Source: Thermoanaerobaculia bacterium (GTDB lineage: Bacteria; Acidobacteriota; Thermoanaerobaculia; Gp7-AA8). From it: 64,000 nucleotides of DNA. Location of the stretch: positions 25,389 through 89,388 of the forward strand of contig DASSMK010000346.1 of NCBI GenBank assembly GCA_035688915.1, read 5' to 3'. The notes beneath the pieces were generated by a model. It was not told where the DNA came from, searched no databases, and saw only the letters and a list, made by a program, of their open reading frames with translations. The position numbers were made by a program, and so were the translations under genes. Below are positions 24,830 to 29,748 of this stretch, piece after piece (positions within the stretch are counted from its first letter, which is position 1; every line of letters begins with the position of its first letter).

Positions 24830-26500
24830 ATGGCGCTCGGCGTGCACATCGGCCACGATCGTGGCGCCGCCGTCGTAGTGGACGGTGCGCTCGCCGGCGC
24901 GCTCGCGCAGGAGCGCATCGATCGACGCAAGCACTCGCCGTCTCCCGATCTCCCGTACGGCGCGATCGATGCGCTCCTGAAGTACTTGCGGATTACGCCT
25001 GAGGAACTGCGGAGCGTCACATTCAGCTACACGAACGTACGGATCGCCGAGATCCTACCCCAACTCGAAGCTGAGTTCCGCGAGCACTACGAGCTTCCGA
25101 GGATCGCCGTGCTGGGAGTCTCGCACCATGACAGCCACGCGCTCGCGACGTTCTACACATCACCGTTCGAAGACGCGCTCGTGCTCATCGCGGACGGCTC
25201 CGGGGACATCGTGGACGATCGGCTCGAGGCCGAGAGCCTCTACCGCGCAACGCGCGCACGCGGGCTCACGGTTGTCGCGCGGCGTCTGCAGGACTTCCCG
25301 CTCACGTACCCGACCCGTCGCAACTTCTTCAACTTCGCCTACATGCACGAACTCGACCGCGCGAAGGAGGTAAGCCTCGGGCGGAAGTACGAGCAACTCA
25401 CCTACCTGCTCGGCTTCGCGCACGGCGAAGCAGGGAAGACGATGGGGCTGGCGTCGTACGGCGTGCCTATCGTTCACCGAAGGCCTTCGGTGAACGGCCT
25501 GGGATTCTCGTTGAAGATTCCCGACGTAATCGACGAGCTCGATGCGGTGCTCGCTGCCTCGGCCATCCCACACCATCGCTTCTATCGCGAGCGACGGGCC
25601 GATGTCGCTGCGACGGCCCAAGCGGTGGTGGAGGAGGTTGTGATTGACGTCCTGAACGCCGTGAACCCGACAGGCGCGACAAAGAACCTCTGCCTCGGTG
25701 GAGGGCTCTTTCTCAATTGCCTCTTGAACCACCGGATCCTGGAGCGAACGCGGTTCGAACGCATTCACGTGGTGCCCGCTGCGGGCGACGACGGTCAGGC
25801 GATCGGTGCCGCGTACCACGGCTACGTCGAGACAGTTGGGCCGCCAGCGGGAGGCGGCGTTCGCTCCCCGTACCTTGGCCTCTCCTACCGGCGCTCTGAC
25901 ATTCTGCGCGCGCTTCGGCACTTCCGCTTGCAGTACGAGGAGCTCGACGACGCGACGCTCATCGACCGTGTTGCGACCGCTATCGCGGACGGCAAGGTCG
26001 TTGGATGCTTTCGTGGGCGGTCGGAGTCGGGTCCAAGAGCGCTGTGCCATCGCAGCATCCTTGCCGACCCGCGGCCGAAACGGATGCGGGATCACCTGAA
26101 CCGCCGCGTGAAGTACCGCGAAGAGTTCCGGCCGTTCGCTCCAGTCGTCACGGCGGAGGACCAGTTGCGGTACTTCGACCTGCTGCAGGACTCACCGTAC
26201 ATGCTCCTCGCGGCGAACGTCCGCGCACGCTATCGCCGCAAGCTCGGAGCGATCACGCACGTTGACGGCACCGCACGCGTGCAAGCGGTGTCCTCCGACG
26301 ATGAGCCGTTCGTGCATGCACTGTTGCGACGGTTCGAGAACCTCACCGGGTTCCCCGTGCTCCTGAACACATCCTTCAATTTGTCGGACGAACCAATCGT
26401 CGAGTCGCCGCATGACGCCGTCTCGACGTTCTTGCGCTCGCGGATCGATCACCTGTTCATGGAGCGATTCCTCGTGACGAACAAACAGCCGCTTCGCTAA
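24830..26500 (+). CDS. carbamoyltransferase (NodU/CmcH/TobZ family)
   Basis: N-terminal MALGVHIGHDRGAAVVVDG, then ...IADGSGD...GLASYG... and C-terminal ...GRSESGPRALCHRSILADP...FRPFAPVV...VLLNTSFN. ORF-track start is 24761; ATG 24830 is preferred (alternative 24815). Confidence 0.8.
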   Translation: MALGVHIGHDRGAAVVVDGALAGALAQERIDRRKHSPSPDLPYGAIDALLKYLRITPEELRSVTFSYTNVRIAEILPQLEAEFREHYELPRIAVLGVSHHDSHALATFYTSPFEDALVLIADGSGDIVDDRLEAESLYRATRARGLTVVARRLQDFPLTYPTRRNFFNFAYMHELDRAKEVSLGRKYEQLTYLLGFAHGEAGKTMGLASYGVPIVHRRPSVNGLGFSLKIPDVIDELDAVLAASAIPHHRFYRERRADVAATAQAVVEEVVIDVLNAVNPTGATKNLCLGGGLFLNCLLNHRILERTRFERIHVVPAAGDDGQAIGAAYHGYVETVGPPAGGGVRSPYLGLSYRRSDILRALRHFRLQYEELDDATLIDRVATAIADGKVVGCFRGRSESGPRALCHRSILADPRPKRMRDHLNRRVKYREEFRPFAPVVTAEDQLRYFDLLQDSPYMLLAANVRARYRRKLGAITHVDGTARVQAVSSDDEPFVHALLRRFENLTGFPVLLNTSFNLSDEPIVESPHDAVSTFLRSRIDHLFMERFLVTNKQPLR

Positions 26501-29500: not shown

Positions 29501-29748
29501 ATCTTCGTCGGCCGATCAGCGCGTTCAGGAATCTCGATTCCGAACAACGTGATCGTCTGCTGTGCCATGACGATGATGTCGCGGCCGTGATCGCCCGAGG
29601 GTGGCGTGCGCTCCACGGTGACGACGTCGCGTCGGTCATGGAAGAAGTCTTGGAGATGCTCGGCGATCAGCTCCTCAAATGCCGTTCCGTCGATGCCGGT
29701 GAGATCCCACTCGACGCGCGGTGCGATTGGTCCGGCGTAGCGCGTCAT
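26497..29748 (-). CDS. Avs-like antiviral STAND protein: N-terminal Mrr-type PD-(D/E)xK nuclease, STAND NTPase, C-terminal helical/TPR-like sensor
   Basis: Mrr-like FEELIAEHLQDFFHDRRDVVTVERTPPSGDHGRDIIV...KIYVECKKR (D...ExK). Walker A CSVTGRAGVGKSRIV and Walker B SRVILLEDLHHA. The C-terminal region is helical and over 600 aa. The start was moved to Met153; the stop overlaps the carbamoyltransferase stop (convergent). Confidence 0.7.
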   Translation of the reverse strand: MTRYAGPIAPRVEWDLTGIDGTAFEELIAEHLQDFFHDRRDVVTVERTPPSGDHGRDIIVMAQQTITLFGIEIPERADRPTKIYVECKKRTGDRLDTEFFFDFSQFADTGAPDYYFLVTTASLSPNVHFKAVHECGAKGAKFRLIDGVLLAEYVAQHEIPIPLRSPVTLPKDILVEYQPVPYYRQDRRIDVYVVLWNYASVPRSFHVYLSTNDAWHIIDGAADVDRIVEPRNALVLQLIAQRRTLDHVEADLEIAVTIENERRTIRVSAPHVELAFVPTLVGTQHLDEKDHLRTVIDENVGLTICSVTGRAGVGKSRIVQDALEPRLGKSKIELVPVLFDATGGTDELRAALQTLKISEPTGIDSVEGLLAHLLQNAPRRTRSRVILLEDLHHARKPVLDLLKQFVMFPPTVPHPVTVILTGRNDYTFPNEDYFSLLDVIAVAARPSVVPVELQPLSEQDTYTLIRSILRDAPETVITRIYNLSEHVPYYVTQAIEYLLESGVAHLVHRSEVGIPHLENFSAKEYIPDTVDALYELRLKALGALPHGEAMLDFLTTQSFFGVVVSPVVREEALDADTGDDVLQTLIARRFLSTRQADGRMTFAHENLLAVLRARARAAGNQERAGKLVLSRPRLFALLTDLERAEVLFLARALPDALTQFHRLVRDVERITNFSSEDLDVEYFRYIDAAFECAVQCNAATDLLRKMLLAKAYMGIHNYPLKIGVRACDTALEQLKRVKLRPEARNIVSLELRQLQAHGLLNMGKTMRSSGIMLELDQLLRSTGAGAAAPELVFDLYDRLQEVFKKWNHAALARCYGALAREVVDRSGNPHLRACHAITESGMALYRDPEEARRTARWSFCECRKHGAYRLKVYTRLSMYVAEAVADPTPRTWEKILWKAKRLWQTAALKNLSDSLMRVQLLVATLTYLTRPDDLRAIASAEEYARAGIDSCANFGKGLYSWLLYNLLAVLADARRGEKEEVWERFNSARRELDAQGLLFVGRKDCTYPTVFVISNIAFFRAYFDREDALRILGQVTDYESDRTKEARETALRLVRSKSRLFFRAPRGLTCLADPKHGYWLPLL

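Follow-up and report, generated by a model that had tools for sequence, protein, structure and literature searches.

Is a STAND nuclease of the antiviral type always a sensor that acts alone, or can it be one arm of a genetic switch? This question is raised by a locus in a stretch of 64,000 nucleotides from a Thermoanaerobaculia bacterium (GenBank assembly GCA_035688915.1, contig DASSMK010000346.1, positions 25,389 to 89,388), the whole of which was analysed and is called here the window. An earlier note, made from the letters of this DNA, had recognised at positions 26497..29748 an antiviral STAND (Avs)-like protein with a nuclease domain of Mrr type at its N-terminal end. We found that this gene is paired with an enzyme arm in all related loci compared, in the window with a carbamoyltransferase gene, and that the segment carrying both arms inverts in relatives. 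We consider it probable that the locus encodes a ligand-gated STAND nuclease in an invertible cassette, the flipping of which acts as an either/or switch between the nuclease and the carbamoyltransferase.

Two convergent genes between inverted recombination cores

The coordinates first given for the STAND-nuclease gene proved correct, and its strand is minus: a single open reading frame (ORF) encoding 1083 AA runs there from 29748 to 26497. A plus-strand reading of 26497-29748 was rejected, its translation being full of stops, and so was a 1235-AA ORF starting from TTG 30204, an over-extension into the upstream phosphatidylcholine-synthase-like (Pcs-like) gene. Since the TTG ORF overlaps this upstream gene and the methionine of ATG 29748 is also the first residue of the closest homologues, the start was placed there (MTRYAGP...). 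The second gene (24815..26500, plus strand) encodes a 561-AA O-carbamoyltransferase of the NodU/CmcH/TobZ/GdmN family, with ATG 24815 as its likely start. The two genes are convergent, and their 3′ ends overlap by 4 nt.

The generality of this pairing was determined for distinct loci that contain a full-length relative of the STAND gene together with downstream DNA (n = 31; STAND identity from 21% to 96%). All such loci that could be retrieved were included, in part through a search seeded with the 11 closest sequences. Their hosts include Acidobacteriota, Ignavibacteriales, Melioribacteraceae, Croceimicrobium, SAR324, Caldithrix, Undibacterium and a Ruegeria plasmid. A convergent enzyme arm was present in 31/31 loci: 28 carry a carbamoyltransferase, three a myo-inositol-1-phosphate-synthase operon without carbamoyltransferase, and none lacks an arm. 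An apparent loss of the carbamoyltransferase from locus L001 was dismissed as a gene-calling artefact, as tblastn finds an intact gene there. The STAND gene is obligately paired with an enzyme arm and is not a stand-alone Avs. The opposite view, that we are dealing with a single-gene Avs which senses phage terminase or portal and to which the carbamoyltransferase and the repeats are functionally irrelevant, has in its favour a domain order as in nuclease-type Avs and the defence-island context in the window. We regard it as quite unlikely: the convergent arm is kept in every locus, down to 21-24% STAND identity and across phyla, the edges of the cassette coincide with conserved recombination cores, and the protein has no match among the Avs hidden Markov models, its sensor showing no specific similarity to that of Avs4.

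The gene pair is bounded by two inverted copies of a 19-nt recombination core, CGATAATTGGGAATTATCC. The left copy (24796..24814, plus strand) lies directly before the carbamoyltransferase ATG, and the right copy (29767..29785, minus strand) falls within the 3′ end of the Pcs-like gene, with the STAND ATG following 18 nt further on; the 4952 bp between them (24815..29766) constitute the invertible cassette. Both perfect 19-bp cores are contained in the longest inverted repeat of the 23.4-30.8 kb region, whose 44-nt arms (24771-24814 and 29767-29810) are 80% identical. In its generalised, 17-bp form the core reads GATAAY-N5-RTTATC, with 6-bp palindromic arms and an asymmetric 5-bp spacer, and this pattern occurs four times in the window vs. 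0.00 times expected. Cores in inverted orientation flank the cassette in about 26 distinct related loci, in which the cassette length varies from 4.9 to 8.7 kb and tracks the cargo, and the start codons mostly lie 0-54 nt from the core.

Comparison of related contigs showed that the cassette inverts in place in relatives by site-specific recombination. Both orientations were found between unchanged flanks in four contig pairs (L003/L004, L007/L008, L001/L002 and L042/L043). L003 and L004, whose STAND protein is 24% identical to that of the window, come from two samples with 100% identical DNA; the segment 9904-15078 is collinear, the flanks are swapped and reverse-complemented, and perfect 62-bp inverted repeats are located at the junctions. 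Opposite cassette orientations with swapped flanks were also seen for L007 (and L006) vs. L008 (STAND 35% identical to the window), here with a 25-bp inverted repeat, as well as for L001 vs. L002 (64%) and L042 vs. L043 (95% and 96%). Positions 24793-29785 of the window align at 90.7% nucleotide identity with the L042 and L043 cassettes, and the alignment ends at the cores. Judging from the "k141" in their names, the MEGAHIT contigs were assembled at k = 141, more than the repeat length, so the junctions should be supported by reads and not be artefacts of the assembly graph. The contigs of L005, L014 and L056 comprise little or nothing beyond the cassette and break at the repeats, and L008 ends at one repeat.

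What inversion would do to expression can be read from the gene borders. Both the STAND and the carbamoyltransferase gene begin with ATGACGCGC. With the cassette as it now lies, the end of the Pcs-like protein is ...IIGNYPRPSFAR* and its gene shares an ATGA overlap with the STAND start; in a simulated inversion the protein ends ...IIGNYP* and the ATGA overlap is with the carbamoyltransferase start. This flipped arrangement is found naturally in L009, in which 4 nt are common to the Pcs-like gene and the carbamoyltransferase gene. In the L007/L008 pair, from Ignavibacteriales and with a recombinase of 309 AA, the recombinase gene reads into the STAND gene in L008 and into the carbamoyltransferase gene in L007, which has the identical protein. 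With most core-to-start gaps as short as stated above, there is little room for internal promoters, and because the 3′ ends of the convergent genes overlap, transcription of one arm would run antisense through the other. The lack of promoter room and the apparent translational coupling of the outside gene to the arm that faces it lead us to infer an either/or phase switch operated by inversion.

In the mechanism that we propose, by analogy with Avs3 and Avs4, the helical C-terminal sensor would bind a ligand, probably phage-derived, upon which the NTPase module would oligomerise and bring the nuclease domains together; DNA would then be cut and the infection aborted. The outside gene would be coupled translationally to whichever arm faces it, and a flip of the cassette would swap this arm. 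In the orientation of the window the STAND nuclease would be the coupled (ON) arm, with the carbamoyltransferase uncoupled and overrun by antisense transcription, and in the flipped state the carbamoyltransferase would be expressed instead. The enzyme arm would probably tailor a hydroxyl-bearing small molecule, a lipid head group or a glycan, which would allow a population to spread its risk over a suicide sensor inside the cell and a modification that is chemical or concerns the envelope.

Several observations weigh against such a switch or against parts of it. Inversion was seen in relatives up to 96% identical and not in the window's own copy, and no recombinase adjoins the window cassette, the only candidates being two integrases of 211-212 AA that lie 19-26 kb away. 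In the L049/L050 lineage (contigs of 678-723 kb) a convergent STAND-carbamoyltransferase pair is kept at 9001-13905 with no detectable inverted repeats, perhaps as a derivative that has become fixed and no longer switches. The ON/OFF logic is deduced from gene geometry, and a promoter scan detected no sigma-70-like site, a result that is uninformative for this phylum. L019, L055 and L057 have divergent intergenic regions on both flanks, each of which might hold an inward promoter, in which case both arms would be expressed and inversion would only swap their promoters. Concerning the proposed sensing of phage, none of the Avs/AVAST models of PADLOC-DB v2 (Avs1-5) matches the STAND protein at E ≤ 1, and the conservation of the sensor says nothing on whether its ligand is of phage origin. 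A terminator scan of the locus gave terminator-like sites no more commonly than in shuffled sequences.

Domain structure of the STAND protein and its relation to Avs

An AlphaFold2 model of the full-length STAND protein was obtained with a mean predicted local distance difference test (pLDDT) score of 87.4. In the model, an alpha/beta Mrr-like nuclease domain (AA ~1-160, nt 29269-29748; model 1-157) is followed by an all-beta, Ig-like sandwich (AA ~170-270, nt 28939-29241; model 173-267), a P-loop nucleotide-binding domain (AA 283-~455, nt 28384-28902), a module of helices and a winged helix (AA ~456-620, nt 27889-28383) and a helical-repeat sensor (AA 621-1083, nt 26500-27888), all encoded on the minus strand; the helical repeats at ~620-1055 have high pLDDT. 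The beta-sandwich between nuclease and NTPase had been overlooked in the earlier note, and its structural matches are adaptin ears, complement MG domains and TRAP. A helical sensor region of over 600 AA was described there; the model is all-helical from ~458 to 1055, and the sensor accounts for ~460 AA.

All four motifs quoted for the protein were found (GDHGRDIIV at 52-60, YVECKK at 84-89, GRAGVGKS at 309-316 and ILLEDLHH at 386-393), and they do not owe their presence to chance. Pfam Mrr_cat (PF04471) matches residues 19-152 with 28.3 bits vs. a gathering cut-off of 21, and AAA_22 matches residues 304-424 with 34.9 bits vs. a cut-off of 27; AAA_16 falls slightly under its cut-off. In an alignment of 17 homologues with identities down to 21%, the nuclease residues D57, E86 and K88 are invariant and E25 is nearly so. 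Also invariant are G309, G312, G314 and K315 of Walker A, D390 and H392 of Walker B, and G422, R423, D425, H604 and E605. In the model, D57 is positioned just before strand 58-62, and E86 and K88 are within strand 81-88. The protein thus has a Mrr-type PD-(D/E)XK domain with a restriction-endonuclease-like fold and aligned catalytic residues, the two points on which the first interpretation had been made to depend, and the assignment of a STAND NTPase is borne out by the AAA_22 match and the invariant Walker residues. The invariant TGRND motif (R423) appears to resemble a sensor-1 arginine, and the FxHEN motif (H604/E605), placed after a predicted beta-hairpin, may resemble an MHD-type histidine.

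In a Foldseek search of PDB with the full-length model, the best match was the STAND-tetratricopeptide-repeat (TPR) protein 6mfv (E 8.8e-12), with further matches to Cdc6, SAMD9, Apaf-1, Avs4 (8dgf_B, 9e-7), the plant NLRs Sr35 and NRC2, and MalT; the sensor region matches TPR-type proteins as well. A search of PDB by sequence gave no match for the whole STAND protein or for its N-terminal profile, the whole-family profile gave only weak NTPase matches in PDB (Cdc6, NRC4 and MalT), and no family matching the protein was found in NCBIfam. With the PH0952-type STAND-TPR protein (6MFV) and the MalT/AAA_16 group it shares an NTPase of AAA_16/AAA_22 type followed by helical repeats, whereas these proteins have neither a nuclease effector nor a beta-sandwich.

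Such likenesses would agree with a regulatory role, in which a signal-transducing, MalT/AfsR-like switch binds DNA by its Mrr-like domain and has the enzyme arm, the recombinase or the lipid genes on the flanks under its control. The AAA_16 and AAA_22 matches and the presence of MalT and 6mfv among the best structural matches point this way, and so does a STAND-like protein without effector domain that is encoded in a second cassette of the window. Nevertheless, we find a regulator decidedly improbable, as the invariance of D57, E86 and K88 and the near invariance of E25 over this deep divergence is what would be expected of an active nuclease, no helix-turn-helix domain is present in the STAND protein, and the loci are found on mobile elements and in defence islands.

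The domain order reported for Avs proteins had been the basis for calling the protein Avs-like. This stands as far as the architecture of effector, NTPase and sensor is concerned, which is that of Avs4 (EcAvs4, PDB 8DGF) too, and does not extend to membership in a named Avs family: the sole PADLOC match is a weak one to LmuA, on the nuclease domain. The protein belongs to the STAND and Mrr_cat superfamilies and is built like a nuclease-type Avs; it is not filed under Avs1-5, and "Avs-like" is valid for its architecture only. Avs4 is larger (~1,540 AA, target 1,534-1,540, vs. 1083 AA); the window protein has an additional Ig-like beta-sandwich, its sensor lacks specific similarity, and its gene is always paired with a convergent enzyme arm inside an invertible cassette. 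As the structural match to Avs4 (TM 0.14) is no better than those to Apaf-1 and Cdc6, it gives no evidence for a shared sensor; no Avs sensor of solved structure is similar to the one found here, and the specificity for terminase or portal that the comparison with Avs had implied is unsupported. A 2026 survey by Lee et al. distinguishes 589 STAND clades and 684 sensor clusters, with Avs families named up to Avs21 (PMC13581612).

A profile search of 1.84 billion representatives retrieved 173 proteins at E<1e-30, most of them of ~1,040-1,220 AA and matching end to end. They occur in the same groups of hosts as the loci listed above, from Acidobacteriota to Ruegeria, and a Thermoanaerobaculia metagenome-assembled genome has contributed a protein identical to that of the window (HET7436897.1, annotated "AAA family ATPase"). 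The sensor is about as conserved within the family as the NTPase (30-34% vs. 30% mean pairwise identity), which fits one conserved ligand for the whole family. Phage records contained no match to the family, and the one match in plasmid records was a copy disrupted by IS21 on Ruegeria pSD25. This copy belongs to locus L044, a cassette on pSD25 (NC_004574.1, ~22.2-29.2 kb), which is a conjugative plasmid from a cultured isolate, Ruegeria sp. PR1b. The cassette has 27-bp inverted repeats and an adjacent tyrosine recombinase, the IS21 element splits its STAND gene, and a DUF6088/AbiEii pair adjoins it.

The enzyme arm and its possible substrates

The window carbamoyltransferase gave Pfam matches to Carbam_trans_N (2.4e-35) and Carbam_trans_C (4.1e-66), corresponding to a Kae1-like N-terminal and a YrdC-like C-terminal domain. 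It matches GdmN with 5e-74 (253 bits) and TobZ with ~3e-59, and the motifs HHDSH, GDDG, GRSESGPRAL, REEFRPFAP, HVDGTAR and NTSFN align with those of GdmN; PADLOC has no model for it. In both Pfam domains and in the motifs aligned with GdmN the enzyme is like TobZ, GdmN, NovN and NodU. It differs from them in that its gene faces a STAND nuclease in an invertible cassette and is not part of an antibiotic or Nod-factor cluster.

A carbamoyltransferase of the NodU family encoded by a phage acts on 5-hydroxymethylcytosine (5hmC) in DNA and RNA and on 5hmdCTP (PMC8670742). This allows for another reading of the gene pair, as a modification-restriction system: the carbamoyltransferase would mark self nucleic acid or convert a modified phage base, the STAND nuclease would read the mark, both would be expressed jointly, and inversion would swap promoters or tune the ratio of the two products. 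Mrr-type, MspJI and AspBHI folds are indeed typical of modification-dependent nucleases, and inward promoters are possible on both flanks in some loci. The window enzyme, however, resembles the small-molecule O-carbamoyltransferases much more closely, with 253 bits for GdmN, whereas its match to the phage 5hmC enzyme reaches 76 bits (25% identity). The other arms, with inositol-1-phosphate synthase, DegT, radical-SAM/SPASM and GNAT, or ATP-grasp enzymes, suggest small-molecule or envelope chemistry and not DNA, and the ATGA coupling in both orientations favours alternate over joint expression. We therefore think such a pair unlikely. The notion that the window enzyme itself carbamoylates 5hmC in DNA is likewise weakened by the low identity to the phage enzyme, set beside far stronger matches to small-molecule enzymes.

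The enzyme arm is modular. It consists of the carbamoyltransferase alone; of the carbamoyltransferase with a 2H phosphoesterase; of the carbamoyltransferase with a radical-SAM/SPASM enzyme and a DegT aminotransferase; of the carbamoyltransferase with inositol-1-phosphate synthase, radical SAM and DegT; or of a fusion of inositol-phosphate synthase and GNAT with radical SAM and DegT. Such enzyme families serve the tailoring of aminocyclitols and amino sugars (BtrN, BtrS and TobZ types), and for the arm this function is a lead, not a result. A kinase gene of the APH family (aminoglycoside-phosphotransferase-like) is located just outside the STAND end in L019 (8680-9645) and L057 (976-1938), whose cassettes of 7.4 kb carry the arm of carbamoyltransferase, radical SAM/SPASM and DegT. 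This neighbour hints at an aminocyclitol-like substrate.

Probable exchange of cassettes, their surroundings and implications

On the STAND side of the cassette, the Pcs-like gene (29745..30560, minus strand), encoding a CDP-alcohol phosphatidyltransferase-like protein, lies outside and reads into the cassette. Beyond the other core, a gene for a ClsB-like protein of the phospholipase D family (PLD; 23569..24816, minus strand) reads away from it. The PLD gene probably starts at ATG 24816-24814, overlapping the carbamoyltransferase ATG. An extension of its ORF to 25020, which would add the first 69 codons, was rejected as probably spurious, being antisense to the 5′ end of the carbamoyltransferase gene. 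The edge of the cassette seems to carry a CATG palindrome (24814-24817) that serves the starts of both divergent genes, PLD and carbamoyltransferase. Part of the PLD start codon would then come from within the cassette, and the N-terminus and transcription of PLD may vary with the cassette's orientation.

Pcs-like and ClsB-like PLD genes bracket the cassette throughout the Thermoanaerobaculia-like lineage, and the two sides of the cores differ in their histories. The window shares 95% identity with L042 and 64% with L001 in the STAND protein, and 89% and 76%, respectively, in the carbamoyltransferase; the corresponding values are 40% and 56% for the Pcs-like protein and 51% and 54% for PLD. 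This discordance points to an exchange of cassettes between elements at the cores. Together with the end of the nucleotide alignment of the window and L042 at the cores, it would also suit an explanation in which the locus is mainly an exchangeable, mobile cargo cassette, the in-place inversions being a by-product of the recombinase without regulatory role. We hold this to be very unlikely. The geometry of the start codons relative to the cores is conserved, the ATGA overlap is rebuilt both ways, and both orientations occur at unchanged sites in four independent lineages; moreover, exchange and phase switching are compatible with each other.

Many relatives encode, just outside one core, a XerC/D-like tyrosine recombinase with a length of 298-329 AA, and these recombinases share 28-55% identity with one another. 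The window contains two cassettes and two genes for tyrosine recombinases that consist of the catalytic domain only. One is located at 904..1536 (minus strand, 211 AA, Pfam Phage_integrase), and the second, a paralogue, at 4951..5586 (minus strand, 212 AA). They are 50% identical to a 213-AA integrase encoded two genes beyond the PLD gene in L011, L042 and L043. That one of them might serve as the invertase in trans is a guess, and they are candidates only.

The second cassette lies at 49.6-53.2 kb of the window, between inverted copies (49599-49615 and 53211-53227) of the same core, GATAACTAGAAATTATC. It comprises an ATP-grasp gene resembling D-Ala-D-Ala ligases (49628-50704, plus strand) and, convergent with it, a gene for an 829-AA, AAA_16 STAND-like protein without effector domain (50708-53197, minus strand). 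The GC content at third codon positions (GC3) of this cassette is 0.62-0.63, below that of the neighbouring genes. The 829-AA protein shares with the STAND-nuclease family only a winged-helix stretch that includes the TFSHE motif (hhalign probability 85%). The same layout was found in L045 and L046, the recombinase of L045 is 55% identical to one located beside a STAND-carbamoyltransferase cassette, and three homologues from the second-cassette family are on contigs of ~3.6 kb, which is the length of the cassette. Thus the recombinase-and-site system serves cargo of more than one kind.

The surroundings of the main cassette consist of DNA from mobile elements or defence loci. In the window they include a RepB-primase gene, genes for single-stranded DNA-binding proteins and, 5 kb away at 14.9-21.3 kb, a complete SspABCD phosphorothioation module, with SspD at 14895-15827, SspC at 15703-19233, SspB/DUF4007 at 19122-20018 and the SspA cysteine desulfurase at 20015-21307. 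Downstream of it are two large ORFs, at 12528-14879 (with a weak REase_II match) and 10640-12601, which could be the restriction partner of SspABCD. Among the relatives, neighbouring genes include AbiEii in L044, SLATT, TerB_N and a BrxC/BrxD-family gene in L009, a RES toxin gene in L003, and HEPN and nucleotidyltransferase genes in L039. Upstream of the Pcs-like gene, five co-directional genes on the minus strand (30685-36091) have a GC3 of 0.82-0.92 vs. 0.77 in the cassette. The first encodes a RepB-primase domain, the other four have no Pfam or PADLOC match, and the run may be a replication or transfer backbone of the element that bears the cassette. Further along are genes for a 1093-AA protein with a C-terminal CHAT-protease domain (36581-39862) and a 1308-AA protein with an N-terminal CHAT domain and TPR repeats (45020-48946), for which PADLOC gave nothing beyond a generic TPR match.

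As a genetic device, the window cassette has its closest analogues in known invertible systems. The G segment of phage Mu, the C segment of P1 and the P segment of e14 are convergent gene sets flanked by inverted repeats, and a fixed gene and promoter outside read into the set that faces them, to give two alternative products; the window cassette has the same convergent, outside-read geometry. Those segments are inverted by serine invertases (Gin, Cin and Pin) and switch between tail-fibre variants of one function, whereas here the neighbours are XerC/D-like tyrosine recombinases, the core is of 6-5-6 type, and the arms, an immune-type nuclease and a tailoring enzyme, are functionally unrelated. 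Inversions by tyrosine recombinases, such as the "epigenetic invertons" of Type I restriction-modification hsdS genes, Bacteroides invertons and fimS/FimBE, generate population heterogeneity in defence and surface genes (PMC7672463, PMC9881135). These shuffle halves of specificity domains or flip promoters, while in the present cassettes whole genes of different function alternate. The inversion survey PMC9881135 contains no mention of carbamoyltransferases or Mrr-type nucleases, its single "ATPase" match being unrelated, and our literature searches retrieved no paper linking carbamoyltransferase, STAND/Avs, defence and programmed inversion.

As a tentative generalisation, which seems to us possible rather than probable, the cassettes may represent a widespread class of two-state switches. 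A XerC/D-like recombinase would flip cassettes bounded by GATAAY-N5-RTTATC, so that the cells of a lineage would switch from a STAND/NLR-like immune sensor to a biosynthetic or tailoring arm and back (this arm being a carbamoyltransferase, in some cases joined by inositol-phosphate synthase, aminotransferase and radical-SAM enzymes, or else an ATP-grasp ligase). The arms would be functionally linked, as alternative or incompatible modes of defence, and the cassettes would be swapped between mobile elements at the cores.

Much current work on bacterial immunity centres on STAND/NLR-like sensors, which have been treated as single genes or operons that are constitutively present. Here, more than 100 representatives at 50% identity, from at least six phyla, are locked in an invertible cassette opposite a tailoring enzyme. 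The conserved 17-bp core can be used to search genomes for more cassettes, of which one with different cargo is already visible in the window, and locking of the orientation could separate the two states. The findings suggest that a conserved recombinase-and-site system may move and flip such cassettes, that some NLR-like immunity is phase-variable, and that a costly suicide sensor may be traded, at the level of the population, against a chemical or envelope modification.

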